Shown: positions 7,403 to 28,726, counted from the stretch's first letter. The stretch: 32,000 nt of DNA from Chloroflexota bacterium (GCA_022561455.1 JADFRC010000002.1:1-32000), one strand, 5' to 3'. The notes: generated by a model from the sequence alone, not told the origin. A program made the numbers and translations.

Positions 7403-7482
7403 AGGGAGTGCAGAGAGCCTGCCCTGAGCTTGTCGAAGGGGGCAAGCTCCTTGCCGGAGGCACCGGGTGTCCCCGTACTCAT
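7403..7482 (+). repeat. partial (5' half) copy of the ~125-nt three-hairpin repeat, carrying the 23-nt mini-element at 7416-7438
   Basis: AGGGAGTGCAGAG + AGCCTGCCCTGAGCTTGTCGAAG + GGGGGC...CACCGGGTGTCCCCGT aligns to hairpins 1-2 of the full copies. Hairpin 3 and the tail are absent. Confidence 0.7.
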
Positions 7483-7591
7483 CGCCGCCACGCCCGGCCG
7501 TTCGTGAGCCTCCCCGTCCCGCGCGGCTGTTCGTGAACCTACCTGTCCCCGCCTAGCAGTCCAGCGCATCCACCCGATCCCTCTGTACCGT

Positions 7592-7716
7592 GGGGAGTGC
7601 AGAGGGGCGGGGCCCCTCTGCCGGGGGCATGGGGGTGTCCCCCATCGCTGGATTGATCACCCCCTTCCTGGCGAGGAAGGGGGACGGGGGGATGGTCGAA
7701 ACGGTTGCAGGGCGCC
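7592..7716 (+). repeat. three-hairpin intergenic repeat, copy 1
   Basis: GGGGAGTGCAGAGGGGCGGGGCCCCTCTGCCGGGGGCATGGGGGTGTCCCCCATCGCTGGATTGATCACCCCCTTCCTGGCGAGGAAGGGGGACGGGGGGATGGTCGAAACGG. Aligns end to end with the other copies. Confidence 0.9.
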
Positions 7717-7772
7717 AGCGTCAGAGGAGCGGGGAAGAGTTCTGGGCAGGACATGCTGGCGTGCCCGGCCGC

Positions 7773-8210
7773 TCAGTCCCCCACGTCCAGCGGCCCAAAG
7801 CTGAGCACGCGCTCGATCCGCAGCGCGATCACCGGCGCGCCGTCCAGCACCATGTCGTCGAACTGCGGGTAGCGCTCGCGCAAGAGCCGCACCGCCTCCG
7901 CGTGCTCGTGGCCCGACGTGAAGACCTCGGCCGTGCCATCGACCCGCACCCACGCCACGCGGTCCCAATCGTCCTCGTAGTGGTCGGCGGCGAGCGACGC
8001 CTTCGGGTTCAGCGCCAGGTTGCGGAGCCGCTTGTCGAGCCGCTCGCCCGTGCGGTTCCGCTCGCCACCGCTCACCACGTATGCGGTCCCACCGGAGAGC
8101 GCGAAGCAGACCGGCACGGCGTGTGGCGCCCCGGCCGCGTCCACCGTCGTCAGGTAGCCGACCAGCCGCGTGTCGAGGAACCGGCGCTGCTCGGGGGTCG
8201 GAGCGGTCAT
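7773..8210 (-). CDS. pyridoxamine 5'-phosphate oxidase (PPOX) class protein, probably F420/FMN-dependent
   Basis: Internal ATG 8210 of track ORF 7773..8444 gives MTAPTPEQRRFLDTRLVGYLTTVDAAGAPHAVPVCF..., a typical PPOX split-barrel N-terminus. The upstream 78 codons of the track ORF are Arg/Pro/Ser-rich and look non-coding. Confidence 0.7.
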   Translation of the reverse strand: MTAPTPEQRRFLDTRLVGYLTTVDAAGAPHAVPVCFALSGGTAYVVSGGERNRTGERLDKRLRNLALNPKASLAADHYEDDWDRVAWVRVDGTAEVFTSGHEHAEAVRLLRERYPQFDDMVLDGAPVIALRIERVLSFGPLDVGD

Positions 8211-8284
8211 GAGCGCACCGTACCACGCCTGCCCCTCGCGCCCCTGTGCCTTGGCGCCTTGGCGCCTTGGCCCTGCGCCTTCGT

Positions 8285-8290
8285 TAGAAT
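8285..8290 (+). promoter_or_regulatory. -10-like TAGAAT placed 8 nt before ATG 8299 (possible leaderless transcript)
   Basis: AT-rich hexamer in GC-rich DNA. No Shine-Dalgarno between it and the ATG. Preceded by three 8-bp direct repeats CCTTGGCG (8249-8272). Confidence 0.35.
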
Positions 8291-8298
8291 GCACCCCC

Positions 8299-8922
8299 AT
8301 GCTTCGTCTCATCCTCGTGCGCCACGGACGCACCGCGTGGAACCTGCTCGGCCGCGTCCAGGGCGGCGGCGCGCTCGACGACGTCGGGCGCCAGCAGGCC
8401 GCGGCGCTCGCCGAGCGCCTCAGCGGCGAGCCCATCTCCGTCATCTACGCCAGCCCGGCGCTGCGGGCCCGCCAGACGGCGAGCGCCATCGCCGAGCGGC
8501 TCGGGCTCCCCGTGCGGCGCGCGATGCTCCTGCGGGACCTGAGCTACGGCAAGCTCGCCGGCGCGCTCGTGTCCGACGTCGAGGAGCGCGAGCCCGGCCT
8601 GCTCGAGCGTTGGCGCGCGAGCCCGCACACCGTGCGGTTCGACGGCGGCGAGACCGTCCCGGAGCTGCGCGTGCGCATCGCCCGCTTCATCGAGCGGACC
8701 GCGGAGCGTCACGACGGCGCGACGGTGCTCGCCGCGACCCACGACTCGCCCGTGCGGGTCGCGGCGTCGCTCGCGCTGGGCCTCGACGACTCGCAGCACA
8801 CGCAGGAGCGTCTGCGCACGCGGCTCGCCTCCATCACCGAGCTCTCGGTCGACGGTGGGCTGATCGCGCTCCCGGTCCACAACGACGTCGGCCACCTGCA
8901 AGGGATCGACGGTGGGGCCTAG
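8299..8922 (+). CDS. histidine phosphatase family protein (second paralog)
   Basis: Internal ATG of track ORF 8170..8922 gives MLRLILVRHGRTAWN (RHG motif). Later ATHDSPV second-His region. Confidence 0.8.
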   Translation: MLRLILVRHGRTAWNLLGRVQGGGALDDVGRQQAAALAERLSGEPISVIYASPALRARQTASAIAERLGLPVRRAMLLRDLSYGKLAGALVSDVEEREPGLLERWRASPHTVRFDGGETVPELRVRIARFIERTAERHDGATVLAATHDSPVRVAASLALGLDDSQHTQERLRTRLASITELSVDGGLIALPVHNDVGHLQGIDGGA

Positions 8923-8938
8923 CGCCCGTAGTCCCAGG

Positions 8939-9670
8939 ATGGGCCGGCGGCGCAAGGTGCTCCGTCCGCGCAGCGTGCGCGGCATCAAGCCGTATACCTC
9001 CGACGAGGTCTACGACCTGCTCGCCGCAGCGTACGGACCTCTCACGCTGGCGCGCCCCAGGCACGCCGACGGCACCGCCGAGCTCATCGAGACGATCCTC
9101 TCGCAGCACACCTCCGACACCAACGCGGAGCGCGCCTTCGCCGCGCTGGCCGACCGCTATCCGACGTGGCAGGCCGTGGTCGACGCGCCGACGGCCGAGC
9201 TTGAGGAGGTGATCCGCAGCGGCGGCCTCGCCCGGCAGAAGGCACCCCGCATCCAGGAGGCGCTACGCTCGGTCCACGCGCGCACGGGCGGCTATGGCAT
9301 CGACTTCCTGGCGGAGATGGAGCTGCCCGATGCCAAGGCGTGGCTCCAGGAGCTGCCCGGCGTCGGGCCGAAGACGGCCGGCGTCGTGCTCTCCTTCGCC
9401 TACGGCCGCCCCGCGATGGCCGTGGACACGCACATCCACCGCGTCACCCGACGGCTCGGCCTCATCGGGCCCAAGGTCACGGCCGACGAGGCCCACGACG
9501 TGCTCGAGCCGACCATCGCGCCGGAGCGGGTGCTCGGCTTCCACGTCGGCCTCATCACCCACGGCCGTCAGGTATGCCACGCGCAGCGGCCCGCGTGCGC
9601 CGGCTGCGTCCTCGCGCCCCAGTGCCCGTCGCGGCCCCTGTTCGAGCGCGCCCCCGAGCGCACGCGGTGA
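8939..9670 (+). CDS. endonuclease III-like HhH-GPD base-excision DNA glycosylase with [4Fe-4S] cluster loop
   Basis: HhH-GPD segment LQELPGVGPKTAGVVLSFAYGRPAMAVDTHIHRV. C-terminal CHAQRPACAGCVLAPQC fits C-X6-C-X2-C-X5-C. Start could be 8912 or 8939. Confidence 0.8.
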   Translation: MGRRRKVLRPRSVRGIKPYTSDEVYDLLAAAYGPLTLARPRHADGTAELIETILSQHTSDTNAERAFAALADRYPTWQAVVDAPTAELEEVIRSGGLARQKAPRIQEALRSVHARTGGYGIDFLAEMELPDAKAWLQELPGVGPKTAGVVLSFAYGRPAMAVDTHIHRVTRRLGLIGPKVTADEAHDVLEPTIAPERVLGFHVGLITHGRQVCHAQRPACAGCVLAPQCPSRPLFERAPERTR

Positions 9671-10209
9671 GCGGCCCCACCGGGCTGCCATCGGGCGGCG
9701 CCGTGCCCGAGCGCACGCGGCGGGAGGCCCGCTCGCTGCTGGAAGCGCTATGCGCCGAGCACGGCATCACGCCCGTCCCGGCGCTCGAATGGTCGACGCG
9801 GATGCGGCGCGTCCTGGGCCGCGCCTTCGTCCGGGAGAACCGCATCCGGCTCTCGGCCTGGCTCGACGAGCGCCAAGCCGCCGACACGCTACGCCACGAG
9901 CTCGCGCACATCGCCGTCGGCCGCTCGCGTCGCCGGCCACACGGACCGCGGTGGCGTGCGTGGGCGGCGCGCCTCGGCGTCGAGCCCCGTGCCGCCGCGA
10001 AGGCCGAGCCCGCCCACGCGCCACCGCGCAGTCCGGGCCGCCGCCACGTCGGTCTCGAGTGCGCGAGCTGCGGCACGCGCTTCGTGCGGCAGCGCGTGCT
10101 CCGCGGCCTCTACTGCGCAGCCTGCGGCCCGCGCAAGGGCACGCTCGTGCGCACCGCCGAAGGCGACCGAGAAACGATCCACACCTGGGCACAAGGGCAC
10201 AGCCCTTGA
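9667..10209 (+). CDS. SprT-like zinc metalloprotease domain protein with C-terminal zinc ribbon
   Basis: In frame with track ORF 9340..10209. GTG 9667 overlaps the upstream TGA as GTGA. HELAH (HExxH) motif; CASCG...CAACG ribbon. Start inferred. Confidence 0.65.
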   Translation: MSGPTGLPSGGAVPERTRREARSLLEALCAEHGITPVPALEWSTRMRRVLGRAFVRENRIRLSAWLDERQAADTLRHELAHIAVGRSRRRPHGPRWRAWAARLGVEPRAAAKAEPAHAPPRSPGRRHVGLECASCGTRFVRQRVLRGLYCAACGPRKGTLVRTAEGDRETIHTWAQGHSP

Positions 10210-10430
10210 CCCACTTGGGGTAGCACCGCGGAGCTCGGCGAACGCTGTCATTCAGAGCGGGGTGTTGGCGGTCAGCCCCGGACCACGTTTGTGCTGAGGC
10301 TCTCGAAGTACGAGCGAACGGTTGGCTGGCACCGCCGACGCCGAGGCACACCCCGGTTGCTCGCCCACCTGACGCGCTCCGGCTGGCGCCGCGGGGCTTG
10401 GCGCCAAGGAATGGCTTCACCGCACAGGAC

Positions 10431-10602
10431 GGGGAGTGCAGAGAGCCTGCCCTGAGCTTGTCGAAGGGGGCGCTGCCCCTCTGCCGGGGGCACGGGGGTG
10501 CCCCCCGTATTTGGCTTTACCACCCCTATCCTGGCGAGAGCCTGCCCTGAGCACAGTCGAAGGGAAGGGGGACGGGGGGATGGTCGAAGCAGTCGTGAGC
10601 GC
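10431..10602 (+). repeat. three-hairpin repeat, copy 2, expanded by two nested mini-elements (10444-10466 and 10539-10562)
   Basis: Head GGGGAGTGCAGAG, hairpin 2 CACGGGGGTGCCCCCCGT, tail GGGGGACGGGGGGATGGTCGAAGC. Two 23/24-nt inserts AGCCTGCCCTGAGC..GTCGAAG interrupt it. Confidence 0.85.
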
Positions 10603-10917
10603 CGACCCCTCGCTAGCGGCGTGGCGCTTCGAGGCGACCGGCTTACGCGGGCGGTCCGCCGCAGCACGCTCAGGGTCTTGGCAGAAAGCCTCCCCGCGCC
10701 CTATGATGGGGCTGCGGCAACTGGCCGCAGAAAGGGGGTGATTCAGTAGTGAAATCATCGTTATCTCGCACTGCTGCGTCGCCCGCTGCCCATCGCTAGG
10801 AGCCGGTAGGTCGAAGCCGGCTGCCTGCGATGCTCTCGCGGACCTATGTGATGGGTCCTTGCGGGGATGCAGCAGGGTGCGACCCGGTCCCTCTTATGAT
10901 GGACCGGGACATTGAGG

Positions 10918-10951
10918 GAGCGCCCCGCTCGCTTCGGTGAGCGGGGCGCTC
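10918..10951 (+). other. 15-bp GC-rich hairpin capped by a TTCG tetraloop (terminator-like, weak T tail)
   Basis: GAGCGCCCCGCTCGC-TTCG-GTGAGCGGGGCGCTC, followed by TTGCG. It closes a lower-GC stretch holding three smaller hairpins. Confidence 0.4.
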
Positions 10952-11069
10952 TTGCGTCCGCGGCCGGCCCGGCCGCGTGCGATACAATATGTCAGCGCCG
11001 ACGGCTTCGCAGTCCGGCCGCGGCGCCCATCTCGTTCATGTAGGGGAGCCCGCCGAGGTGCCAGGCAGC

Positions 11070-12035
11070 ATGGTCGTCAGGATAGGCGTCGCCGGTGCCT
11101 CCGCGATGGCGCGGGAGGGCCGCGAGACGTTCCTCCGGTACCTCGACACGCTCGAGGCGCTCCGGTGGGACTCCGTGTGGTTCTCGGACCGCATCGTCGG
11201 CGGCGCATGGCGGATGGACCCGCTCGCCGGCATGGCGATCACCGCCGGCCGGACCGAGAAGCTCAAGTTCGGCACGGGCGTGCTGCTCATGTCGATGCGC
11301 AGCCCCGTGGCGGCCGCCCGCGAGCTCGCCACGATCGACCTGCTCTCGAACGGCAGGCTCATCGTCGGCGTCGGCATCGGCCAGGAGTCGACGGTCGAAT
11401 ACGACGCGATGGGCGTGCGCAAGCGCGACCGCGGCAAGCGCCTCGACGAGGCGATCGTGATCATGCGGCGGCTGTGGACGGAGGACAGCGTCACCTACGA
11501 GAGCGACTTCCTCAAGCTGACCGAGGCCTCGATCCAGGTGCGCCCGAAGCAGGCCAACATACCGATATGGATCGGCAGCAGGACGGAGCCCGGACTGCGC
11601 CGCACCGGGCGCCTCGGCGACGGCTGGCTGCCGACGCAGATCACGCCGGAGGAGGTCGAGAAGGGCATCGAGCGCATCAAGGAGCACGCGGCCGAGGCAG
11701 GCCGCGACTTCGACCCCGGCCACTACGGCGTGCAGATCGGCACGTACCTGGTCGAGCGCGGACGCGTCCCCGCCGAGGTCACGGAGCGCTATCTCACCTC
11801 GCGCCGCTCCGACGTCCCCGCGGAGGCGATCAACCTGCTCGGCACGCCGGAGACGGTGACGGCGCGGCTCCGTGAGTACATCGACGCCGGAGCCACGAAG
11901 TTCGTCTTCAACCCCGCATGCGGCGCCGGCGAGATGTTCGACCAGCTCCAGCTCCAAGCCGAGGCCATCGTCCAACCCTTCCACCAGGGCGCAGCCCTGG
12001 ACCCACTAGAGGGGCGAACTTCAGTGGTGGGCTGA
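11070..12035 (+). CDS. LLM-class (luciferase-like) flavin/F420-dependent oxidoreductase
   Basis: Track ORF 10977..12035. Start moved to ATG 11070 (MVVRIGVAGAS...) because ATG 10977/10989 overlap a TACAAT box (10983-10988). TIM-barrel LLM pattern: WDSVWFSDR, GRLIVGVGIG, IPIWIGS. The last ~16 codons run into a repeat module. Confidence 0.75.
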   Translation: MVVRIGVAGASAMAREGRETFLRYLDTLEALRWDSVWFSDRIVGGAWRMDPLAGMAITAGRTEKLKFGTGVLLMSMRSPVAAARELATIDLLSNGRLIVGVGIGQESTVEYDAMGVRKRDRGKRLDEAIVIMRRLWTEDSVTYESDFLKLTEASIQVRPKQANIPIWIGSRTEPGLRRTGRLGDGWLPTQITPEEVEKGIERIKEHAAEAGRDFDPGHYGVQIGTYLVERGRVPAEVTERYLTSRRSDVPAEAINLLGTPETVTARLREYIDAGATKFVFNPACGAGEMFDQLQLQAEAIVQPFHQGAALDPLEGRTSVVG

Positions 12036-12155
12036 CGCGGTCGTGCAGAGCTAGGGCATGGGACGAGATCCTTCGCGGAGCCTGTCCTGAGCGAAGTCGA
12101 AGGGCTCAGCATGGCGGTTGGCGAAGCGAGCTGAGGTACGGTGTCCAACCGTGAG

Positions 12156-12456
12156 CTTTAGTCCGGAGCCGGAGCGAAGCGTAGGCGCATAGTCAGACAG
12201 GAGGTTCGCCGGGCACCGAGGGCGGAAGCAGCGCGTGCCTGCTTTAGTCCGGAGCCGGAGCGAAGCGTAGGCGCATAGTCAGACAGGAGGTTCGCCGGGC
12301 ACCGAGGGCGGAAGCAGCGCGTGCCTGCTTTAGTCCGGAGTCCTTCCTCAGCGGAAGGACGCACAGTCAGACAGGAGGTTCGCCGGGCACCGAGGGCGGA
12401 AGCAGCGCGTGCCTGCTTTAGTCCGGAGCCGGAGCGAAGCGTAGGCGCATAGTCAA
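12156..12456. repeat. tandem array, about 3.5 units with period 86/86/88 bp, ending at the argC ATG
   Basis: CTTTAGTCCGGAG recurs at 12156, 12242, 12328 and 12416. Units carry AGTCAGACAGGAGGTTCGCCGGGCACCGAGGGCGGAAGCAGCGCGTGCCTG. Unit 3 swaps CCGGAGCGAAGCGTAGGCGCAT for the hairpin TCCTTCCTCAGCGGAAGGACGCAC. Confidence 0.9.
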
Positions 12457-13491
12457 ATGAAAATAGGCATCATCAACGTCACCGGATACGCCGGCATCGA
12501 GCTCGCGCGCATCCTGCATCGCCACCCCGAGGCCGACATCGTCGGCGTCACCGGGCGCAGCGCGGCCGGCGAGGAGCTCGGCGACGCGCTCCCGCACCTC
12601 GCCCGCCTCGGCTTGAGGATCGAGCCGGAGATCACCAGGAGCGTCGACGTCGTGTTCTCGGCGCTGCCGCAGGTGGCGAGCGCCGAGGTGTGCATACCCT
12701 TCGTCCGCGACGGCGTGAAGGTCGTCGACATCTCGGCGGACTTCCGCCTGCACGACCCCGCCGTCTACGCGGAGTGGTACGGGGCGAAGCACCCGGCGCC
12801 GGACCTGCTCGAGACGGCCGTGTACGGCCTGACCGAGCTCGACCGCGACGGCATCGCGGCCGCGCCGCTCGTCGCCAACCCCGGCTGCTATGCGACGGCA
12901 GCACTGCTCGCGCTCGCGCCGGTCGTCCGCGAGGGGCTCGTGAGCGAGCGTCTGATCGTCGATACGAAGTCGGGCGTCTCGGGCGCCGGCCGCGGCCTGA
13001 GCATGGGCACCCACTTCTCGGAGGTCAACGAGAACGTCTTCGCCTACGCGGTGGACGGCCACCGCCATCTGCCGGAGATCACGCAGGAGCTCCGCCGGAT
13101 GCGCGCCGGATTCGAGCCGAGCGTCACGTTCCAGCCGCACCTCATCCCGATGACGCGCGGCATCCTCGACACGGTCTACGCGGAGCTCGCCGACGGCGCC
13201 TTCGCGTCCGCCGAGGCGGCGAGGGACGGCGTGCGCGAGCTGTACGCTGGCTTCTATGCCGATGCGCCCTTCGTGCACGTGGTGGACGCACCGCCGCAGA
13301 CCAAGCAGACGTGGGGCAACAACGACTGCCTGATCCACCCGACCGTCGATGTGCGGACGGGCCGGCTCGTCGTCTTCGCGGTGCTCGACAACCTCGTCAA
13401 GGGCGGCGCTGGCCAGGCGGTGCAGAACATGAACCTGATGTTCGGCCTGCCCGAATCGACCGGGCTCGAGCAGCTCGCGATCTATCCGTAG
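12457..13491 (+). CDS. argC: N-acetyl-gamma-glutamyl-phosphate reductase
   Basis: MKIGIINVTGYAGIELARIL NAD-binding N-terminus. Active-site region ANPGCYATAALLALAP. 344 aa, typical ArgC length. Confidence 0.93.
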   Translation: MKIGIINVTGYAGIELARILHRHPEADIVGVTGRSAAGEELGDALPHLARLGLRIEPEITRSVDVVFSALPQVASAEVCIPFVRDGVKVVDISADFRLHDPAVYAEWYGAKHPAPDLLETAVYGLTELDRDGIAAAPLVANPGCYATAALLALAPVVREGLVSERLIVDTKSGVSGAGRGLSMGTHFSEVNENVFAYAVDGHRHLPEITQELRRMRAGFEPSVTFQPHLIPMTRGILDTVYAELADGAFASAEAARDGVRELYAGFYADAPFVHVVDAPPQTKQTWGNNDCLIHPTVDVRTGRLVVFAVLDNLVKGGAGQAVQNMNLMFGLPESTGLEQLAIYP

Positions 13492-13622: not shown

Positions 13623-13777
13623 GCCAGGGCACTGCCCCTTCGACAAGCTCAGGGCAGGCTCTGGACCCACTAGAGGGGCGTCTGTCAGTGGTGGGCTGAT
13701 GCGGCGGTGAAGACAGACCGATCCCCTTGGGGCACCGGGCGGAAGCAGGTCAGGGCTCAGGGAGGCCACGAGTGGCC

Positions 13778-14557: not shown

Positions 14558-14573
14558 CCGAACGGAGGTTCCT

Positions 14574-15994: not shown

Positions 15995-16059
15995 CGGGCA
16001 CGCCTGCCAGGGCGCACGCCGTGCGCCCCTACGCGGGCCGTGGCTTGGCGCCGCCAGAG

Positions 16060-16184
16060 GGGGAGTGCAGAGGGGCGAAGCCCCTTTGCCGGGGGTGCGG
16101 GGGTGTCCCCCGTCTCTGGCTCTATCACCCCCTTCCTGGCGAGGAAGGGGGACGGGGGGATGGTCGAAACGACGGTAGGGCACC
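16060..16184 (+). repeat. three-hairpin repeat, copy 3
   Basis: GGGGAGTGCAGAGGGGCGAAGCCCCTTTGCCGGGGGTGCGGGGGTGTCCCCCGTCTCTGGCTCTATCACCCCCTTCCTGGCGAGGAAGGGGGACGGGGGGATGGTCGAAACGACGGTAGGGCACC. Confidence 0.9.
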
Positions 16185-16296
16185 GACGCTCGCGCACGGA
16201 GTGGAGGTTCCGCGGCAAAGCCGTGCGGCGCGGATGGCGAGCGCGTAGACTGCCTGGCGGATCGCGAGGGGAACGACGACGGAGGGAGACCCAGCC

Positions 16297-17532
16297 ATGC
16301 TGACTCAAGGGCAGAACGAGCGCCTGACGCGGGTCGGCCCCGGCACGCCGATGGGCGAGCTGATGCGGCGCTACTGGCACCCCATCGCGGCGGCCTCGGA
16401 GCTCTCCGGCGAGCAGCCGACGAAGCCGGTGCGGCTGCTGGGCGAGGACCTCGTCCTCTACCGCCTGCGCGGCGGCCGCCTCGGACTCATCACGAACCGG
16501 TGCGCGCACCGCGGCATGGACCTCTCGTACGGCATCCCCGAGGAGGATGGGCTGCGCTGCGCCTACCACGGCTGGATGTACGACGTGAGCGGCCAGTGCA
16601 TCGAGCAGCCGTCCGAGCCGTCGCGCAGCAACTACAAGGCCGAGATCAAGCTGACCGCCTACCCCGTGGAGGAGCTGGGCGGCCTCGTCTGGGCGTATCT
16701 CGGCCCGACGCCGGCGCCGCTCGTCCCCCGCTGGGACATGTTCGCCTGGGACAACGTGACGCGTGAGATCTCGGCCGTCATGCTGCCGTGCAACTGGCTC
16801 CAGACCGTCGACAACGCGCTCGACCCCGCCCACTTCGAGCACCTGCACGGCTACTACGGCTCCTGGGTCATGTCGCAGAGGGGCACGTCGGAGGAGTGGG
16901 ACGTGGTCCGCTCCCGCCCGCGCGCCGGCCACCACTACCGCATCGGCTTCGACCGCTTCGAGCACGGCATCATCAAGCGCCGCGTCACCGACGCCGGGGA
17001 CGAGAACAGCGACATCTGGAAGATCGGGCACCCGATCATCTTCCCGTACACGCTCCGGATCGGAGGGGGCGAGCAGCACACCTTCCTGCTGCGCGTGCCG
17101 GTGGACGACGAGAACACCTGGTACGTGCGCTACATCGTCCGCGTGCCCGAGCAGGGGCAGCAGGCCCCGCCGCAGGACGCGATCCCGCTGGGCGAGATAC
17201 CGCTCTACGACCCGCGCGGGCGGCTGAAGAACGACACCATCCCGTCGCAGGACCAGCTCGCCTGGGTCGGCCAGGGCGCGATCAGCGACCGCACGACGGA
17301 GCACCTCGGCGTGACCGACACCGGCGTGATCATGTACCGCCGGATGCTGGAGGAGCAGATGTCGATCGTGGCCGAGGGCGGGGACCCCATCAACACCTTC
17401 CGGGACCCGGCCGCCAACGAGTGCATCCTGCTCCCGATCGAGGGCGGGCGGTACCCCGGATACGACGTCGAAGGAGGCCCCTTCGCCGGCCAAGAGTCCC
17501 ACCGCGCCGAGGCCGAGGCGAACCTCGTCTAG
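16297..17532 (+). CDS. Rieske [2Fe-2S] non-haem iron oxygenase, phthalate-family alpha-type subunit (paralog 1)
   Basis: SD GGAGGGA. Rieske motif CAHRGMDLSYG...CAYHGWMYD. Mononuclear iron motif CNWLQTVDNALDPAHFEHLH. N-terminal NERLTRVGPGTPMGELMRRYWHPI. Confidence 0.88.
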   Translation: MLTQGQNERLTRVGPGTPMGELMRRYWHPIAAASELSGEQPTKPVRLLGEDLVLYRLRGGRLGLITNRCAHRGMDLSYGIPEEDGLRCAYHGWMYDVSGQCIEQPSEPSRSNYKAEIKLTAYPVEELGGLVWAYLGPTPAPLVPRWDMFAWDNVTREISAVMLPCNWLQTVDNALDPAHFEHLHGYYGSWVMSQRGTSEEWDVVRSRPRAGHHYRIGFDRFEHGIIKRRVTDAGDENSDIWKIGHPIIFPYTLRIGGGEQHTFLLRVPVDDENTWYVRYIVRVPEQGQQAPPQDAIPLGEIPLYDPRGRLKNDTIPSQDQLAWVGQGAISDRTTEHLGVTDTGVIMYRRMLEEQMSIVAEGGDPINTFRDPAANECILLPIEGGRYPGYDVEGGPFAGQESHRAEAEANLV

Positions 17533-17612
17533 GCAGGCAGGGCACTGCCCTGCACCCATAAGGGGGACGTACGCCGATCGTCGCCTGAAGCGGTTGTGCA
17601 GAGCAAGCGCAC

Positions 17613-17735
17613 GGGGTGTGCAGAGGGGCGAGCCCCTCTGCCGGGGGCACGGGGGTGTCCCCCGTATCTGGCTTTATCGCCCCCTTCCTGGCGAGGAAGG
17701 GGGACGGGGGGATGGTCGAAACGGTCGTGGGGCAT
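17613..17735 (+). repeat. three-hairpin repeat, copy 4
   Basis: GGGGTGTGCAGAGGGGCGAGCCCCTCTGCCGGGGGCACGGGGGTGTCCCCCGTATCTGGCTTTATCGCCCCCTTCCTGGCGAGGAAGGGGGACGGGGGGATGGTCGAAACGGTCGTGGGGCAT. Confidence 0.9.
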
Positions 17736-17807
17736 CGACGCGAGGCCATCGCGGGTGTTTCGAGGGAATGCCCATAGTCAGGGCGCGGCCCCAGAGGAGG
17801 TGACGAC

Positions 17808-18551
17808 GTGAAGCTCGACGGGAAAGTGGCGATCGTGACGGGTGCCGGACGCAACGTCGGCGAGGGCATAGCGCACCTCTTCGCGGAGGAGGGCGCGAGC
17901 GTGGCCGTCGTCGACTGGCTCGAGGAGCGCGCGCAGGCCGTCGCCAGCGCCATCAACGCCGAGCGCGACGGCGCGGCGCTTGCGGTGACGGCCGACGTGA
18001 CCTCCAGCGCCGACGCCGAGCGCATGGTCGCCGACGTGGTCGCTCGGTGGGGCCGCGTCGATGTGCTCGTGAACAACGTCGGCGTCGTCGACCGCACCAA
18101 CGTCCTCGAGCTCCCCGAGGCCGAGTGGGACCGCGTCACCGGCGTCTCGCTCAAAAGCGTCTTCCTCGTCACCAAGTACGCCGCCAAGCAGATGGTCGCG
18201 CAGGGCGACGGCGGACGCATCGTCAACATCGCTTCGACGTCCGGTCACCGTGGGCGGGAGAACGCCACCGCCTATCCGGCGGCCAAGGGCGGCGTGCTCA
18301 ACCTGACGCGCGCCCTCGCCGTGCAGCTCGCCCCGTACGCCATCCGGGTCAATTCCATCACGCCCAACCGCGTGGAGACCATAGCGGAGCCGGGCGCCCC
18401 CGACCGCAACCGGGGGCCGGTGGACAACCTGATCGGACGGCCCTGCATGCCGCGCGACGTCGCGCTCGCGACCGTCTTCCTAGCCTCGGCGGACGCCGAC
18501 TTCATCACCGGGATCGACCTTCCGGTGGACGGCGGCGTGCTCGCCAGGTAG
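17808..18551 (+). CDS. short-chain dehydrogenase/reductase (SDR) family oxidoreductase
   Basis: GTG after GAGGAGG. TGAGRNVGEG cofactor motif, NNVG, catalytic YPAAKGG (YxxxK). Confidence 0.88.
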   Translation: MKLDGKVAIVTGAGRNVGEGIAHLFAEEGASVAVVDWLEERAQAVASAINAERDGAALAVTADVTSSADAERMVADVVARWGRVDVLVNNVGVVDRTNVLELPEAEWDRVTGVSLKSVFLVTKYAAKQMVAQGDGGRIVNIASTSGHRGRENATAYPAAKGGVLNLTRALAVQLAPYAIRVNSITPNRVETIAEPGAPDRNRGPVDNLIGRPCMPRDVALATVFLASADADFITGIDLPVDGGVLAR

Positions 18552-21077: not shown

Positions 21078-21149
21078 CATGGGTAGGTGAGCCGGTGCCG
21101 CCCGGCCCCACGGCCAGGCGCGGCGGCTATCGGAAGTGAGGACGCAGCC

Positions 21150-22403
21150 GTGCTGACTCAAGAGCAGAACGAGCGCCTGACGCGGGTCGGACCCGGCACG
21201 CCGATGGGCGAGCTGATGCGCCGCTACTGGCACCCCATCGCGGCCAGCGTCGAGCTCAGCGAGGACAACCCCACCAAGGAGGTCCGCCTCCTCGGCGAGG
21301 ACCTCGTGCTCTTCCGCAGCACGGCAGGTGAGATCGGGCTGATCGAGCCGAGCTGCGCGCACCGCAAGGCCAACCTCTCCTACGGCATCCCGGAGCCCGA
21401 GGGCATCCGGTGTGCCTACCACGGCTGGCTTTATGACATCCACGGCCAGTGCGTCGACCAGCCGTCGGAGCCCGAGGGCAGCCGCTTCAAGGAGAAGGTC
21501 AAGCTCAAGGCGTATCGGGCCCAGGAGCTCGGCGGGCTCATCTTCGCCTACATGGGCCCCGAGCCCGCGCCGCTGCTCCCGCGCTACGACATGTTGGTCT
21601 GGCCCGGCGTCCGCAACGCGCAGGCGTGCATGCTGCCGTGCAACTGGCTCCAGTGCCACGAGAACTCGCTCGACCCGCTGCACTTCCAGTGGCTGCACCG
21701 CTACTACGGCGGCTACGTCATGAACAGGAAGAAGCCGCAGGCGGAGCGCGACGCCTGGAACCTCAGGACGCTGACCAAGGGCGCGGACCACCACAAGATC
21801 GGCTTCGAGAAGACGAGCTACGGCGTCATCAAGCGCCGGCTCATCGGCGACGAGACGGAGGACGACGACAACTGGAGGCTGGGGCACCCCGTCTTCTTCC
21901 CCAACATCCTGCGCATCGGCATCAACCTCCAGTTCCGCGTCCCCGTCGACGACACGCACACCCTGCACATGATGCTGAACTGGCGCGCCCTCAAGGACGG
22001 CGAGGAGACGCCTGATGCCGTCCCGTATCAGGAGCTCCCCGTCTACGACGACGACGGGAGGATCAAGGGCGATTGGGTGGTCGGTCAGGACCAGACCGCC
22101 TGGATCATCCAGGGCGCCATCACCGACCGCACCACCGAGCGCCTCGGCGTCACGGACATCGGGCTCATCATGTACCGCCGGATGCTCGAGGAGCAGATGC
22201 AGGTGGTCGCGGATGGGGGCGACCCGCTCAACACCCACCGCGACCCGGTGGAGAACGAGATCATCATGGTCCCGTGCGAGCGCTTCGAATACCCTGGCTA
22301 CGAGGGCATCCCCGGCGGCCCGTTCAAGGACATCGTCGTCCACAACGACGTGGAAGCGGTGCTCTCGGGCGAGGGCGTGAAGCGCCCCGAGTTCGCCACC
22401 TAG
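21150..22403 (+). CDS. Rieske [2Fe-2S] non-haem iron oxygenase (paralog 2)
   Basis: In frame within track ORF 21087..22403. GTG 21150 gives VLTQEQNERLTRVGPG, colinear with paralog 1 (MLTQGQNERLTRVGPG). CAHRKANLSYG...CAYHGWLYD; CNWLQCHENSLDPLHFQWLH. Confidence 0.88.
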   Translation: MLTQEQNERLTRVGPGTPMGELMRRYWHPIAASVELSEDNPTKEVRLLGEDLVLFRSTAGEIGLIEPSCAHRKANLSYGIPEPEGIRCAYHGWLYDIHGQCVDQPSEPEGSRFKEKVKLKAYRAQELGGLIFAYMGPEPAPLLPRYDMLVWPGVRNAQACMLPCNWLQCHENSLDPLHFQWLHRYYGGYVMNRKKPQAERDAWNLRTLTKGADHHKIGFEKTSYGVIKRRLIGDETEDDDNWRLGHPVFFPNILRIGINLQFRVPVDDTHTLHMMLNWRALKDGEETPDAVPYQELPVYDDDGRIKGDWVVGQDQTAWIIQGAITDRTTERLGVTDIGLIMYRRMLEEQMQVVADGGDPLNTHRDPVENEIIMVPCERFEYPGYEGIPGGPFKDIVVHNDVEAVLSGEGVKRPEFAT

Positions 22404-22553
22404 GGCACAGCCCTGGACCCATAAAAGGGCGCACGCCGGCGGTGGGCTGACGTGGCAGCGATGGCCGGAGCGTAGGCGTACAAGGGCAGCGGGACGAGAT
22501 CCTTCGCTCCGCTGCAGGATGACCGCCGACGAAGCGGACCGAGGGTGCGCGGA

Positions 22554-22598
22554 CCAACCGTGAGCTTTAGTCCGGAGCCGGAGCGAAGCGTAGGCGCA
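22554..22598 (+). repeat. 45-nt segment identical to 12145-12189 (head of the argC-proximal tandem unit)
   Basis: CCAACCGTGAGCTTTAGTCCGGAGCCGGAGCGAAGCGTAGGCGCA at both loci. Here it is followed by CAGTTAGAGGAGGCGACAAGCATG, which supplies the SD and start of Rieske paralog 3. Confidence 0.9.
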
Positions 22599-22619
22599 CA
22601 GTTAGAGGAGGCGACAAGC

Positions 22620-23876
22620 ATGATTACCGCGGAGATGAACGACCGGCTGACGCGCGTCGGGCCCGGCACGCCGATGGGCGAGCTCATGCGCCGCTACTGG
22701 CACCCCATCGCCGGCAGCTCCCAGCTCAACGACGACAACCCGACCAAGGAGGTACGCCTCCTCGGCGAGGACCTCGTGCTCTTCCGGAGCACCGCCGGCA
22801 AGCTCGGGCTGATCGAGCCGAGCTGCGCCCACCGCAAGGCGAACCTTTCGTACGGCATCCCGGAGCCCGAGGGCATCCGATGTGCCTACCACGGCTGGCT
22901 CTACGACGTGGACGGTCAGTGCGTCGATCAGCCCTCCGAGCCCGAGGGCAGCCGCTTCAAGGAGAAGGTCAAGCTCAAGGCGTACAAGGCAGAGGAGCTC
23001 GGCGGCCTCATCTTCGCCTACATGGGCCCCGAGCCCGCGCCGCTGCTCCCGCGATGGGACATCCTGGTCTGGGACGGCATCCGCAGCGCGACGTCGGTCA
23101 AGCTCGCGTGCAACTGGCTCCAGTGCCACGAGAACTCGCTCGACCCGCTCCACTTCCAGTGGCTCCACCGCTACTACGGCGGCTGGGTCATGAACCGCAA
23201 GAAGCCCGCCGCGGAGCGCGACGAGTGGAACGCGCGCACGATGTCCAAGGGTGCCGAGCACCGCAAGATCGGCTTCGAGAAGACGAGCTACGGCGTCATC
23301 AAGCGCCGGCTCATCGGCGACGAGACGGAGGACGACGACAACTGGAAGCTGGGTCATCCCATCCTGTTCCCGCACATCCTGCGGAACGGAGACACGCTGC
23401 AGTACCGCATCCCCATCGACGACACGCACACCGACCACCTCGTGCTCTCGCACAAGTTCCTCAAGCCTGGCGAGGTCACCAACGAGGGGAACGTGCCCTT
23501 CGAGGACGTCTCCGCCTACTACGAGGACGGCCGGCTGCGCGACGACTACGTGCGCGGCCAGGACCAGACCGCCTGGGTGATCCAGGGCGCGATCATGGAC
23601 CGCACGACCGAGCGCCTCGGCGTCTCCGACGTTGGCCTGATCATGTTCCGCCGCATGCTCGACGAGCAGGCAAGGATCGTCGAGGACGGCGGCGAGCCGA
23701 TGAACGTCTACCGCGACCCGGCTGAGAACGAGATCCACATCTTCCCCGTCGAGCGGCGCGCGTACCCCGGCTACGAGGGCACGGGCGGGCCGTTCAAGGA
23801 CATCACCCCACGCAAGCCCGACGTGGAGACCATCCTCTCCGGCGAGGGCGCCAAGCTCTCCCAGTGGAAGACGTAG
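22620..23876 (+). CDS. Rieske [2Fe-2S] non-haem iron oxygenase (paralog 3)
   Basis: ATG 22620 after GAGGAGG, within track ORF 22545..23876. Same Rieske and iron motifs as paralog 2. Confidence 0.88.
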   Translation: MITAEMNDRLTRVGPGTPMGELMRRYWHPIAGSSQLNDDNPTKEVRLLGEDLVLFRSTAGKLGLIEPSCAHRKANLSYGIPEPEGIRCAYHGWLYDVDGQCVDQPSEPEGSRFKEKVKLKAYKAEELGGLIFAYMGPEPAPLLPRWDILVWDGIRSATSVKLACNWLQCHENSLDPLHFQWLHRYYGGWVMNRKKPAAERDEWNARTMSKGAEHRKIGFEKTSYGVIKRRLIGDETEDDDNWKLGHPILFPHILRNGDTLQYRIPIDDTHTDHLVLSHKFLKPGEVTNEGNVPFEDVSAYYEDGRLRDDYVRGQDQTAWVIQGAIMDRTTERLGVSDVGLIMFRRMLDEQARIVEDGGEPMNVYRDPAENEIHIFPVERRAYPGYEGTGGPFKDITPRKPDVETILSGEGAKLSQWKT

Positions 23877-23897
23877 CCCCAGCGGAAGACAGCACAC

Positions 23898-23930: not shown

Positions 23931-23984
23931 CGCCCAGAACCGGGCTCATCCTTAGCGGGTTCGCTCAACCCAGGTTGGTGAACG

Positions 23985-24350
23985 GAACAGCATGCGCAGA
24001 GCGGCGAAGCCCGTTCGCCGGGCGCGCGCGGGTACCCCTCGTCATGGGCTCTATCACCCGCTTCCTGTCAGGGGCCTTGCCTATCGAGGTCCCCTTTCGT
24101 GCACCGGACAGGGTGTGCAGAGCGGCGAAGCCCGTTCGCCGGGCGCGCGGGTGCCTCTCGTCATGGGCTCTATCACCCACTTCCTGTCAGGGGCCTTGTC
24201 CCAAGGTCCCCTTTCGGCCATCGGACAGGGGTATGCAGAGGGGCAGAGCCCCTCTGCCGGGGGCACGGGGGTGTCCCCCGTTGTTGGCCTTATCCCCCCC
24301 TTCCTGGCAGGAAGGGGGACGGGGGGATGGTCGAAAGGGTGGTAGGGAAC
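23985..24350 (+). repeat. head-to-tail array of three repeat units: two divergent-subfamily units (about 23985-24105 and 24106-24226) plus one canonical three-hairpin unit (24227-24350)
   Basis: Units A and B share GCAGAGCGGCGAAGCCCGTTCGCCGGGCGCGCGGGT..CTCGTCATGGGCTCTATCACCC.CTTCCTGTCAGGGGCCTTG...GGTCCCCTTTCG. Unit C is canonical (GCAGAGGGGCAGAGCCCCTCTGCC...GGATGGTCGAAAGG). Confidence 0.85.
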
Positions 24351-24409
24351 TGACGCGACGGTAGCGGAGCGGACGTTCCAGGCAAGATCCAATTGCAGGA
24401 GGAGCCAGC

Positions 24410-24808: not shown

Positions 24809-24825
24809 GCCCGCCGCGACGCGTG

Positions 24826-24831
24826 TAGAAT
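24826..24831 (+). promoter_or_regulatory. -10-like TAGAAT placed 6 nt before ATG 24838 (possible leaderless start)
   Basis: TAGAAT then CCCGCC then ATG. No SD. Same hexamer as at 6644 and 8285. Confidence 0.35.
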
Positions 24832-24837
24832 CCCGCC

Positions 24838-25914: not shown

Positions 25915-25920
25915 TCCTCG

Positions 25921-26067
25921 CCATCGTCTGTTATCCAGAGCAACCGTCCTGTCATTCCGGGCCACTGTTCTGTCATTCCGAGCCACTGTTCTGTCATTCC
26001 AGGCCACTGTTCTGTCATTCCGGGCCACCGTCCTGTTATTCCAGGCCACTGTTCTGTCATTCCGAGC
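25921..26067. repeat. 21-bp tandem repeat, 7 units (consensus CACTGTTCTGTCATTCCGRGC)
   Basis: Units start at 25921, 25942, 25963, 25984, 26005, 26026 and 26047. The first and sixth are more diverged. The last unit is also the 5' arm of the REP hairpin at 26054-26136. Confidence 0.9.
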
Positions 26068-26136
26068 GGAGCGAGAAATCTCTCGGGACGCGCGTGAGAG
26101 ATCTCTCGTCGGCCTGCGGCCTCCTCGGGATGACAG
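26054..26136. repeat. REP-like long hairpin (arms CTGTCATTCCGAG / CTCGGGATGACAG)
   Basis: 13-nt arms are complementary apart from one G:T. Inner near-palindrome GAGAAATCTCTC...GAGAGATCTCTC. Confidence 0.7.
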
Positions 26137-26248
26137 TAGGGGTTCTCCGCGCGCCGAATCGGCGAAATCCGCCCGGTAACCCACGTGCGCGCCATGCCGT
26201 CCAGCCCTATCGTTCTCGCGGATCGAACGTAATGGGGGTGGGCTGCCA

Positions 26249-26752
26249 ATGTCGCCGATCGCTCACGCCATCATGAACAGCGAGCTCTTCGCTGACCTAT
26301 CGCCCCGCCAGGCCAAGAGCCTGGACCGCCTTGCCAAGCATGTGCGCTTCAAGAAGGGCGCCGTGCTCTTCTCCGCCGGGGAGCCCGCCGAGCGCCTCTA
26401 CGTCGTGCTCGAAGGCACCGTGGAGCTCCGGATGCCCGTCCCAAGCTGGTGGGGGATAGCGACGCCGCACGAGAAGATGACCACCGCCCGGCCGGGCCAG
26501 ATCGTCGGCTGGTCGGCGCTGGCCGAGCCCTGCGTGTACTCGCTCACCGCGGTCGCGTCCGAGCGCGCCACGGCGGCACGCTTCGAGGCGGGTGCGCTGC
26601 GGGAGCTCATGAGCGCCGACCCGGAGCTGGGGAACATCGTCCGGGCCCGCGCGCTCTCCGTCGTCAGCCGCAGGCTGGACGCGCTGGCCGAGGCCATGCT
26701 CGCGCAGCGCGCCGTCATGGCCTCCCAGGCCGCCGCTCCCGCGTACGCGTAG
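26249..26752 (+). CDS. cyclic nucleotide-binding domain protein (stand-alone cNMP-binding, no HTH seen)
   Basis: LFADLSPRQAKSLDRLAKHVRFKKGAVLFSAGEPAERLYVVLEGTVEL is a typical cNMP-binding beta-barrel start. 167 aa. Confidence 0.7.
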   Translation: MSPIAHAIMNSELFADLSPRQAKSLDRLAKHVRFKKGAVLFSAGEPAERLYVVLEGTVELRMPVPSWWGIATPHEKMTTARPGQIVGWSALAEPCVYSLTAVASERATAARFEAGALRELMSADPELGNIVRARALSVVSRRLDALAEAMLAQRAVMASQAAAPAYA

Positions 26753-26822
26753 CGTGTACACCGGCCGCAGCTTTCTCACAGCCGAGCGTCGGCCTCGCCT
26801 CAAGTCCCTGTTCCTGCACCCT

Positions 26823-26947
26823 GGGGAGTGCAGAGGGGCAAAGCCCCTATGCCGGGGGCACGGGGGTGTCCCCCGTCTTTGGCTTCATCTCCCCCTTCCT
26901 GGCCAGGAAGGGGGACGGGGGGATGGTCGAAACGGTCGTGGGGCACC
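26823..26947 (+). repeat. three-hairpin repeat, copy 6
   Basis: GGGGAGTGCAGAGGGGCAAAGCCCCTATGCCGGGGGCACGGGGGTGTCCCCCGTCTTTGGCTTCATCTCCCCCTTCCTGGCCAGGAAGGGGGACGGGGGGATGGTCGAAACGGTCGTGGGGCACC. Confidence 0.9.
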
Positions 26948-26970
26948 GGCGCGGCGGGCGTGGGGCGGGC

Positions 26971-27870
26971 CTACCCGCGCAGCTTCGCGATCACCTGCTC
27001 GCCGAACGCCGGTATCTGCTCGTCCACCATGTCCCCTGGGAACTGCACGTGGAACGTGTCCACCCCCGCCTCGCGCCACGTCTCGACCTGATCGAGCACC
27101 TCGTCCGCGGTGCCCATGATGCCGCCGCGCGTGCCGAGGGTCTGCGGCATGAGGGTGGCCGGGTCGGCGGCCCCCACGTAGGCCGTGCAGTTCACGACGC
27201 GGTGCAGCACCGCCGGGTCCCGGCCGGCTGCATCCGCGCCTGCTTCGAGCAGCGCGACCTGCTCGCGGTACGCCTCGATGGAGTCCGGCCAGCCGCCGTT
27301 CTTGATCCAGCCGTCGGCCACGCGGCCCGTGAGCGCCATCATCCGCGGCTTGCCCGCGCCCAAGAAGATGGGGATCGTGCCCTCGACCGGCTTCGGGTCG
27401 ACCACGCCCTCGGCCACGCTCAAGCGCTTCCCCTCGTACGTGAACGACTCGTTCGCCCACAGCCCGCGGAGGATGGTGATGGCGTCCTCGAGGCGCTCGA
27501 AGCGCTCGGCGGGGGTGCCCAGCGTGATGCCGTAGCCCGCGTAGTGCTTCTCCTGGCCGCCCGCGCCGAGGGTCAGCAGCACGCGGCCGCCGCCGGTGAT
27601 CACATCCAGGCTCGCGGCCATCTTCGCGAGCATGCCGGCGTTGCGGAACGGCACGTTGAGCGTCGAGTGCGTCAGCCGGATGCGCTCGGTCTGCACGCCG
27701 ACCGCCGTGGCCATCGTCCACGCCTCGATGTTGTGCTCCGGCGGCCGGTCGCTGAAGGCGATGTTGTCGAACCCGGCGGCCTCGGCGGCCTTCGCGACCG
27801 CGACGGTCCGCTCGTAGGAGAGCCCACGGGGGTTCAGGCCGAAGCGCGTCGCGTTGCTGCTGCGTCCCAT
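26971..27870 (-). CDS. LLM-class flavin/F420-dependent oxidoreductase
   Basis: SD GGGAGG before ATG 27870. FGLNPRGLSYERTVAVAKAAEAAGFDNIAFSDRP, GGRVLLTLGAGG, IPIFLGAGKP pattern. Confidence 0.8.
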   Translation of the reverse strand: MGRSSNATRFGLNPRGLSYERTVAVAKAAEAAGFDNIAFSDRPPEHNIEAWTMATAVGVQTERIRLTHSTLNVPFRNAGMLAKMAASLDVITGGGRVLLTLGAGGQEKHYAGYGITLGTPAERFERLEDAITILRGLWANESFTYEGKRLSVAEGVVDPKPVEGTIPIFLGAGKPRMMALTGRVADGWIKNGGWPDSIEAYREQVALLEAGADAAGRDPAVLHRVVNCTAYVGAADPATLMPQTLGTRGGIMGTADEVLDQVETWREAGVDTFHVQFPGDMVDEQIPAFGEQVIAKLRG

Positions 27871-28098
27871 CGTGGCCTCCCGCGGTCAAGGCTGGAGGGC
27901 CCAGGATAGCAGCGATCTGCTCATAGGGCGGTCTCCGGAAGGGTTTTCGTTCGTCCTGAGGCACTCGAAGGGCGAACGGCCGGTTGCCGGCCAACCTTTG
28001 TTCGTGGTTCGAGAACCTCACCACGAACGGCACCAGGGCTCGACTCCTTCACCAGCCCCCGATGGCGATTCGTCAGAGTAGCGAGGTACCCTAAGACC

Positions 28099-28521
28099 AT
28101 GATCCGCGTCACCGACACGCTATGGCTCGGCGAGAGCGAGGTCGAGTTCTCGTTCTTCACCGCCTCGGGCCCCGGCGGCCAGCACGTCAACAAAGTCGCG
28201 ACCGCCGCGCAGCTGCGCTTCGACGCCGCGCGCTCGCCGTCGATTCCGGACGCCGTGCGCACGCGCCTGCGCTCGCTCGCCGGCCGGCGCATGAGCGCCA
28301 GCGGCGTCGTCGTCATCAAGGCGCAGCGCTATCGCTCGCAGGACCGCAACCGCGCAGACGCGCTCGAGCGGCTCGTGGGCCTGATCCGCCGCGCCGCCGA
28401 GCCACAGCGCCCACGCCGGCCGACGGCCCCGACCAAGGCCTCCGTCCGCCGCCGCCTGGACGCGAAGGCACGGCAGGCACGCGCGAAGCAGCTGCGCGGC
28501 CCCGTCGGGCCGGAGGAGTAG
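28099..28521 (+). CDS. arfB: alternative ribosome-rescue factor ArfB (YaeJ-type peptidyl-tRNA hydrolase)
   Basis: 140 aa. SGPGGQHVNKVATA GGQ motif. Basic C-terminal tail RRRLDAKARQARAKQLR. Confidence 0.88.
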   Translation: MIRVTDTLWLGESEVEFSFFTASGPGGQHVNKVATAAQLRFDAARSPSIPDAVRTRLRSLAGRRMSASGVVVIKAQRYRSQDRNRADALERLVGLIRRAAEPQRPRRPTAPTKASVRRRLDAKARQARAKQLRGPVGPEE

Positions 28522-28601
28522 GGGCGGCGTTACAATGGCGGCGCCGTGGCTGCTGCGCGTGAACTGGGCTCGCTTCAGCAGCCCTGTTCATGCGCCGGAT
28601 T

Positions 28602-28726
28602 AGGGAGTGCAGAGGGGCGAAGCCCCTTTGCCGGGGGCACGGGGGTGTCCCCCGTATCTGGCTTTATCACCCCCTTCCTGGAGAGGAAGGGGGACGGGGG
28701 GATAGTCGAAAGGGCCGTGCGGCGCC
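28602..28726 (+). repeat. three-hairpin repeat, copy 7
   Basis: AGGGAGTGCAGAGGGGCGAAGCCCCTTTGCCGGGGGCACGGGGGTGTCCCCCGTATCTGGCTTTATCACCCCCTTCCTGGAGAGGAAGGGGGACGGGGGGATAGTCGAAAGGGCCGTGCGGCGCC. Confidence 0.9.

Follow-up and report, generated by a model that had tools for sequence, protein, structure and literature searches.

The window analysed here is a stretch of 32,000 nucleotides (nt) from a Chloroflexota bacterium (GCA_022561455.1, JADFRC010000002.1:1-32000), with a GC content of 69.6%. The spacers between its genes carry a family of G-rich repeats with three hairpins, which an initial annotation, made by a model from the sequence, had described as intergenic units of ~125 nt in a single orientation. 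A repeat-finder recovers the family at the positions given there. In addition to seven full copies, the window has a half copy and two partial units, all on the + strand, and the conserved cores of the full copies extend over 7590-7730, 10429-10617, 16058-16198, 17611-17750, 24226-24365, 26821-26961 and 28600-28740. Motif searches agree with this count: the 27-nt tail motif and the 26-nt hairpin 2 motif each have seven + strand matches at ≤3 mismatches and none on the - strand, against an expectation of 0.00 from 100 shuffles. The half copy (7403-7482) is equally real, and covariance-model matches recover the two divergent partial units, at 23996-24074 and 24108-24225. In an alignment of six copies, identity per column is 86% and the stems are invariant, and the variable parts are the loop of hairpin 1, the loop of hairpin 3 and the spacer between hairpins 2 and 3, in line with the stems and loops originally described. 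The open reading frames (ORFs) crossing the copies have a third-position GC content of 0.54-0.74, against 0.86-0.99 in genes with Pfam support, and the copies differ by 1-nt insertions and deletions; the repeats are therefore non-coding and these ORFs are artefacts, as had been proposed.

The family extends well beyond the window. The exact 22-mer of the tail occurs in 51 stretches of a species-representative genome collection, nearly all from four Chloroflexota metagenome-assembled genomes and 33 from one of them; many of these loci lie at contig ends, and many copies are <250 nt from the end. The exact 26-mer of hairpin 2 occurs in 46 metagenome contigs, and diverged but clearly related copies are found on several metagenome contigs with a GC content of 57-64%. 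The window is absent from the loci found with these probes (numbered L001 onwards), and is 93-94% identical over several kilobases (kb) to two of them, L016 and L026. The element is abundant in a clade of high-GC Chloroflexota. It is also carried by L026 (JADFMM010000399, labelled Planctomycetota) and L006 (JADFOM010000038, labelled Acidobacteria), which are probably Chloroflexota contigs placed in the wrong bins, given the 93-94% identity of L026 to the window.

Here we present evidence that the repeats are most likely copies of a ~200-base pair (bp) non-autonomous DNA transposon, a miniature inverted-repeat transposable element, or MITE, with an interior selected for its structure and a role as RNA that would be passive.

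Extent, termini and mobility of the element

Extending the alignment by 60 nt on either side revealed that the unit is longer than first estimated, with a conserved core of ~141 nt within a whole element of ~200 nt. A left arm, GGGGCYTTGCCTCAAA(A)CCCC, lies ~30-45 nt upstream of the core, and a right arm, GGAGGTTTTGAGGCARAGCCCC, which is the reverse complement of the left arm, lies ~15-35 nt downstream of it. Where the ends are preserved, these arms form imperfect terminal inverted repeats of ~20 bp (GGGGCYTTGCCTCAAA... / ...TTTGAGGCARAGCCCC). In the 484 kb of genome fragments examined, 37 of 43 arm-motif matches are correctly placed beside a core, and of the remaining six most adjoin partial copies, indicating that the arms belong to the same element as the core. 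Eight two-armed copies yielded a 202-nt full-length consensus, and when this consensus is folded as RNA the arms form a closing stem around the hairpins (z = -4.5).

Direct repeats lie immediately outside the arms. Four of the 11 two-armed copies (L009, L030:4566, L052 and L065) have direct repeats matching at 8/8 positions, two of which can be extended to 9, and two more (L087 and L093) match at 7/8; mismatched control pairings (n = 110) gave none at 8/8 and four at 7/8. Furthermore, filled and empty versions of one site were found. At L035, a ~193-nt insertion in the sense orientation separates the stop codon from the next start codon of two co-directional genes, whereas the orthologous site in L015 has a 12-nt spacer at this position; the exact duplication at this pair is blurred by 13-17% divergence. 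The presence or absence of neighbouring partial units also differs between the window and L016 or L026. A second candidate empty site, L012 compared with L023, was rejected as not clean, as L023 retains a 25-nt remnant of the element tail.

MITEs are defined by terminal inverted repeats, target-site duplication, small size, the lack of a transposase and the existence of filled and empty sites (PMC3184786). The repeats described here have inverted repeats straddling the core, direct repeats flanking them, a short length without a transposase gene, and a filled versus an empty site, and on these grounds we assign them to this class. They are a new family of a familiar kind, not a new kind of RNA gene. 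The initial annotation had offered a structured RNA or a hairpin-dependent mobile REP/MITE as explanations; its mobile element survives as a MITE with terminal repeats and target duplications, features that it had not recognised, and its hairpin-dependent REP does not.

In an intact element, a G-rich core of ~141 nt is bracketed by imperfect terminal inverted repeats of ~20 bp. Its insertion duplicates 8-9 bp of target, a signature of DDE-type transposases, and the terminal repeats and target duplications together support mobility by such an enzyme acting in trans; candidate insertion-sequence families that make duplications of this length include ISL3, IS1595, IS256, IS66, IS6 and IS1. Copies erode at their ends and undergo internal rearrangement; they also build up tandem arrays of partial units and pick up nested 24-nt hairpin modules. 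Among the element derivatives, one (L002 175-229) has a deletion from one G run to another, another (L047 3695-3766) has a deletion between two nested 24-nt modules, and two (L018 1-110 and L010 4867-5028) have hairpin 1 replaced by GTCCCGA...TCGGGAC hairpins.

Three core hairpins are maintained on the G-rich strand

The strongest evidence for maintained hairpins is the comparison of orthologous copies in the window with those in L016 and L026. Of 144 sites in the stems and tail, two changed, and these form one compensatory pair, whereas among all other sites, in loops and spacers, 25 of 137 did (p = 7e-7). The pair is the C:G to U:A double substitution that had been noticed in hairpin 2 of the first copy; the L016 orthologue retains C:G, so the change arose in the lineage of the window.

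Alignments across the family show the same constraint. In a MAFFT alignment of 44 copies, which was not fitted to the structure, 91.8% of cells pair, and eight pairs have double-sided changes compared with 4.2 in shuffles, a count that none of 500 shuffles reached. A larger alignment of 118 copies, including relatives on contigs of 57-64% GC, was made with a covariance model, as the initial annotation had suggested; 98.0% of its cells pair and 21 of 27 pairs have double-sided changes, compared with 4.9 when shuffled and 7-9 with slid partners. This alignment is biased towards the modelled structure; on inspection, however, the raw sequences of diverged copies agree with the model-aligned pairing. 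In these diverged copies, hairpin 1 is swapped for wholly different pairing sequences (GCAGGGAAC/GUUCCCUGC, GCUGGGAAC/GUUCUCAGC and CUGAAGCCCCGAC/GUCGGGGCUUCAG), the base of hairpin 2 varies as C:G/A:U, U:A/C:G and A:U/C:G, and pairs of hairpin 3 are gained or swapped. The proposal of conserved stems, free loops and compensatory changes stands, and is greatly strengthened by both the 118 copies and the orthologue comparison.

The paired cells also reveal which strand is constrained. There are 73 G:U or U:G cells compared with 18 A:C or C:A cells, and this excess identifies the G-rich strand as the constrained one. The same strand has the lower folding energy, which is partly a consequence of its G-richness. 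Collectively, these data show that purifying selection (or gene conversion that is biased) acts on the G-rich strand to preserve the three hairpins of the core together with the tail GGGGGG-ATGGTCGAAA.

Two further structures were considered and rejected. A fourth hairpin in the 3′ tail (GUCG/CGAC) was dropped, as just 73% of its cells pair, and a G-quadruplex was discarded since, although the strand is G-rich, a fourth free G tract is not conserved. A spare G run lies near each hairpin (core positions 3-6, 34-38 and 97-102; in the copy at the right of the window, 28602-28605, 28633-28637 and 28696-28701) and could pair alternatively with the same C run; together these runs have a G-quadruplex-like spacing without a fourth conserved run.

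Copies in the window and neighbouring repeats

Only two copies in the window span nearly the whole 202-nt model. The most complete, at 28567-28765 on the + strand (model positions 4-200), comprises a left arm at ~28567-28586, the core at 28600-28740 and a degenerate right arm at ~28746-28765. Within its core, hairpin 1 (28609-28631) is followed by hairpin 2 (28639-28655), a T-rich spacer (28656-28669), hairpin 3 (28670-28693) and the invariant tail ACGGGGGGATAGTCGAAA (28694-28711). The other, at 24192-24385 (+; model 3-196, core 24226-24365), ends 25 nt ahead of the start codon (24410) of an HbpS-like gene and has an orthologous copy in L026. It is preceded by two tandem 5′-partial units on the + strand (23965-24069 and 24073-24188, together spanning 23965-24188), each running from a left arm through hairpins 1 and 2 to the 5′ arm of hairpin 3; neither is present at the orthologous locus in L026, where the flanks are 94% identical.

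The remaining full copies, also on the + strand, are variously truncated or enlarged. The copy at 26792-26965 (model 4-180, core 26821-26961) has a left arm but no recognisable right arm; it lies between convergent genes for a cNMP-binding protein (26249-26752, +) and a luciferase-like protein (26971-27870, -), and its hairpin 2 (26860-26876) with the following tail is called terminator-like. Conversely, the copy at 17607-17772 (model 32-200, core 17611-17750) has a right arm but no left arm, and is flanked by a Rieske oxygenase gene (stop at 17532) and a short-chain dehydrogenase/reductase (SDR) gene (start at 17808). The copy at 16054-16223 (model 32-201, core 16058-16198) has the right arm GGAGGTTCCGCGGCAAAGCC and lies upstream of the same Rieske oxygenase gene (16297-17532). 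The copy at 10422-10635 (model 29-194), which includes the unit originally placed at 10431, owes its length to two nested 24-nt modules, one in the 5′ arm of hairpin 1 (10447-10467) and one in the loop of hairpin 3 (10542-10563); its hairpin 2 (10492-10508) with the following tail is also called terminator-like. The first copy, which carries the derived U:A pair and has its orthologue in L016, lies at 7571-7743 (model 17-188, core 7590-7730) between convergent GNAT (6640-7311, +) and PNPOx-like (7773-8444, -) genes. Upstream of it, the half copy (7403-7482, +) is a degenerate 5′ fragment in which hairpin 1 is split by a 24-nt module (7419-7439) and followed by a decayed hairpin 2. This fragment and ~110 nt downstream of it (7380-7592) are missing in the L016 orthologue, with the breakpoint inside a shared GGGAGTGCAGAG.

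The 24-nt module, (A/C)GCCTG(C/T)CCTGAGC-N3-6-GTCGAAGG, occurs at many loci, both free and nested, and in the window also at 12082-12103 (+) and 13637-13657 (-), in addition to the three nested modules. Its predicted fold is CCCU-GA-G[loop]C-GA-AGGG with tandem G·A pairs. In MITE cores it always has the sense orientation (17 of 17 cases) and occupies one of three sites. It is preceded by GAG or AAG and followed by G at the two most frequent of these sites, and likewise where it is nested in related units. The module may be a tiny site-specific insertion unit. A hammerhead ribozyme was rejected by inspection, as the CUGAGC...GUCGAAGG module lacks a CUGANGA core. A short hairpin repeat, CGTTCGTSCTGAGGCTCTCGAAGNACGAR (1166-1197, 10286-10317 and 27948-27979), shares a CTGAG...TCGAAG core with the 24-nt module, and at other loci the module is inserted after the TCGAAG of this repeat.

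Further repeats and a gene cluster share the region. A separate intergenic family forms a tandem array of three to four units with a period of 86-88 nt at 12135-12457, which contains GCTTTAGTCCGGAGCCGGAGCGAAGCGTAGGCGCA, and has a solo unit 10 kb away at 22509-22606. A 56-nt repeat (GCCCTGGACCCACTAGAGGGGCG...GGTCGTGCAGA) occurs at 11994-12049, 13658-13713, 17547-17602 and 22409-22464, at or just after the ends of genes or a tRNA; its 3′ end, GTGCAGA, is similar to the beginning of the MITE core, and at 17547 it lies directly ahead of a MITE copy. A 21-nt tandem repeat of ~7 units of CTGTCATTCCGRGCCACTGTT, ending in GTCATTCCGAGCGGAGCGAGAAATCTCTC, follows directly after an Ldh_2 gene (25927-26073). 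A catabolic region rich in oxygenases is marked out by three paralogous Rieske/LigXa-like oxygenase genes (16297-17532, 21087-22403 and 22545-23876; blocks of 70-89% DNA identity) and three genes for luciferase-like monooxygenases.

Placement, relation to known repeats and possible role as RNA

Although all ten units of the window lie on the + strand, so do 20 of 22 genes called in the interval from 6.6 to 30 kb, and both orientations occur elsewhere; the earlier estimate that such agreement would arise by chance in 1 of 64 cases therefore overstates the evidence. Strict polarity holds inside the window and fails outside it. Between co-directional genes, sense and antisense copies number 12:4, or 9:7 with earlier and cruder gene calls, and the calls outside the window rest throughout on a crude measure, third-position GC. 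One copy, at L001, is a robust antisense case, and a 7.6-kb contig (L030) has four copies in the alternating order -,+,-,+. Polarity is thus a moderate tendency of ~3:1 sense at best, and not a rule. The spacers holding an element outside the window comprise 16 tandem, 14 convergent and 4 divergent ones, against a background of 128, 46 and 47, and the upstream gene is co-oriented with the element in 35 cases compared with 15. A preference for the 3′ flanks of genes and an avoidance of promoter regions are therefore a firm pattern. The GC skew relative to element orientation (15 positive versus 29 negative, with small values from non-independent copies) is uninformative on replication polarity. 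The flanking genes, whose products include GNAT, luciferase-like, HbpS-like and cNMP-binding proteins, an RF-1 domain protein, Rieske oxygenases and SDRs, among others, are functionally unrelated, which speaks against the element being a dedicated cis-regulator.

Searches for the family among described elements returned nothing. Rfam, which the initial annotation had proposed scanning, has no match to the element: across the whole window only a tRNA reaches the gathering score, and over one copy at a permissive threshold the best match has ≤16 bits and E ≥0.7. Plasmid records contain no match to the family, and the literature search found no description of its sequence or of a Chloroflexota MITE of this kind.

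The closest parallels are Correia/CREE of Neisseria, RUP of Streptococcus pneumoniae, Nezha of cyanobacteria and ERIC of enterobacteria, which are likewise small (~200 bp), non-coding, multi-copy and intergenic; bacterial MITEs also share terminal inverted repeats, target-site duplications, filled and empty orthologous sites and a long RNA stem-loop (PMC3184786). Unlike these bacterial MITEs, the Chloroflexota element has a core far better conserved than its ends and covariation across lineages of different GC, and no parent insertion sequence was found in the 484 kb. It is unrelated in sequence to Correia, RUP, Nezha and ERIC, resides in uncultured Chloroflexota and duplicates 8-9 bp of target, whereas Correia duplicates TA.

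Other dispersed repeats offer parallels at the RNA level. SPRITE of S. pneumoniae has a structure resembling a Rho-independent terminator, and BOX of the same species is a modular repeat with a predicted action at the RNA level (PMC3184786). The Chloroflexota element resembles SPRITE in its terminator-like hairpin 2 and T-rich tract, and BOX in its modularity, with optional 24-nt modules and tandem partial units; unlike both, it has demonstrable terminal repeats and target duplications, and its T tract is weak in high-GC copies. Like the REP/BIME repeats of Escherichia coli and Pseudomonas, which have been proposed as mRNA stabilisers or transcription terminators, it places GC-rich extragenic hairpins downstream of genes and in operons and forms mosaics.

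By analogy with these proposals for REP/BIME, SPRITE and BOX, the core would probably act as a weak terminator, a barrier to 3′ exonucleases or an intercistronic stabiliser. Hairpin 2 has a 7-bp stem with six GC pairs and a 3-nt loop, and the 12 nt on its 3′ side are 45% T, against 16% T across copies. At least five T residues fall within some 8-nt segment in 40 of 105 copies, a simple terminator scan is passed by two of the seven window copies, and the T tract is clearer in lower-GC relatives. Most copies would be co-transcribed with the upstream gene, and their hairpins, when transcribed, would be passive passenger structures in 3′ or intercistronic RNA. Hairpin 2 and the T-rich tract might then form a weak intrinsic terminator or exonuclease barrier, making sense insertions downstream of genes tolerable or mildly useful, and such a role would explain both the ~3:1 sense bias and the conservation.

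Several observations weigh against a MITE with a passive RNA role. At the threshold used, both arms are present in just 12 of 65 copies with enough flank, with one arm in 25 and none in 28, and no window copy shows a clean target duplication. The 484 kb contains no transposase or autonomous element with these ends, no ORF enclosed by two arms lying 0.6-3.5 kb from each other and no transposase-like protein in several copies, the only multi-copy proteins being molybdopterin oxidoreductase and Rieske oxygenase paralogues. Conservation is far higher in the core than in the terminal repeats, the opposite of what a neutral MITE would show, and the ratio of sense to antisense copies varies with the crude gene calls. 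The T tract is interrupted in high-GC copies, weakening a terminator role; in addition, the L035 insertion occupies the position of a 12-nt intra-operon spacer and the window copies end 25-105 nt ahead of the next start codon, so that strong termination is unlikely, as it would silence the downstream genes.

The good conservation of the core raises the alternative that it is a functional structured RNA module, such as a protein platform, a processing signal or a small-RNA scaffold, which the MITE just disperses and in which selection acts on RNA function. Covariation, purifying selection on copies in place, the one-strand excess of G:U and a core better conserved than the transposition ends would all fit, as would the invariance of the hairpin 2 apex GGGGGTGTCCCCC and the tail GGGGGATGGTCGAAAC across contigs of 57-72% GC. 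However, part of that invariance is accounted for by the exact-match probes used to fetch the loci, Rfam has no counterpart, the neighbouring genes are unrelated, both orientations relative to genes occur, and internal deletions and module insertions are tolerated. We consider this explanation unlikely, and are similarly doubtful that the invariant GGGGGUGUCCCCC apex and GGGGGAUGGUCGAAAC tail of the selected 141-nt core, carried by the MITE, are recognised by a specific protein or RNA partner. If the core were a functional RNA, a common post-transcriptional signal for processing, stabilisation or attenuation would lie behind dozens to hundreds of unrelated Chloroflexota genes.

It is improbable that the element is instead a neutral MITE without RNA or host function, its palindromes kept by gene conversion and quasi-palindrome template switching at the DNA level, which would produce 'compensatory' changes in one step. 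The high copy number, the tandem and partial arrays and the recombination breakpoints in shared motifs are in keeping with such processes, and the long identical stretches between orthologous copies could reflect conversion. By contrast, hairpin 1 differs wholly in sequence between lineages and always pairs, the fourfold excess of G:U over A:C is not predicted by a process on double-stranded DNA, and loops and spacers diverge freely within otherwise identical copies, unlike in tract-wise conversion.

Y1 transposition, of the REP/RAYT and IS200/IS605 types, is not known to yield either terminal inverted repeats or target duplications, and REPs are believed to owe their mobility to RAYT, with no duplication of the target. 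A REP is a single 20-40-nt palindrome with a GTAG or CGTC tag (PMC3733652), whereas the Chloroflexota element is a ~200-nt unit with three different hairpins, none carrying either tag, and with terminal repeats and target duplications. We therefore place it outside REP/BIME; its terminal repeats, its target duplications and the alternating orientations in one contig likewise place it outside the IS200/IS605-derived (PATE) elements. A REP/BIME-type or IS200/IS605-derived (PATE, TnpB-guide-like) element, moved single-stranded by a hairpin-recognising Y1 (HUH) transposase and so acquiring replication-strand polarity, would accommodate the common direction of the ten window units, the better folding of the hairpins on one strand and a module mosaic like that of BIMEs, but is highly improbable given these termini, the missing tags, the four copies that alternate within 7.6 kb, a weak and noisy relation of GC skew to element orientation and the lack of any Y1 transposase in the 484 kb.

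As a MITE, the family has practical consequences for the study of uncultured Chloroflexota. An element of such high copy number breaks assemblies, as the many copies within 250 nt of contig ends illustrate; it yields spurious ORFs and gives rise to tandem arrays and to small insertions and deletions that distinguish close relatives, and the annotation and binning of these Chloroflexota genomes would benefit from a model of it. The family also offers a clean natural case of a MITE in which the interior, and not the ends, is under selection for nucleic-acid structure, and the long-standing question of the domestication of such repeats as RNA elements therefore becomes testable with metatranscriptomes.

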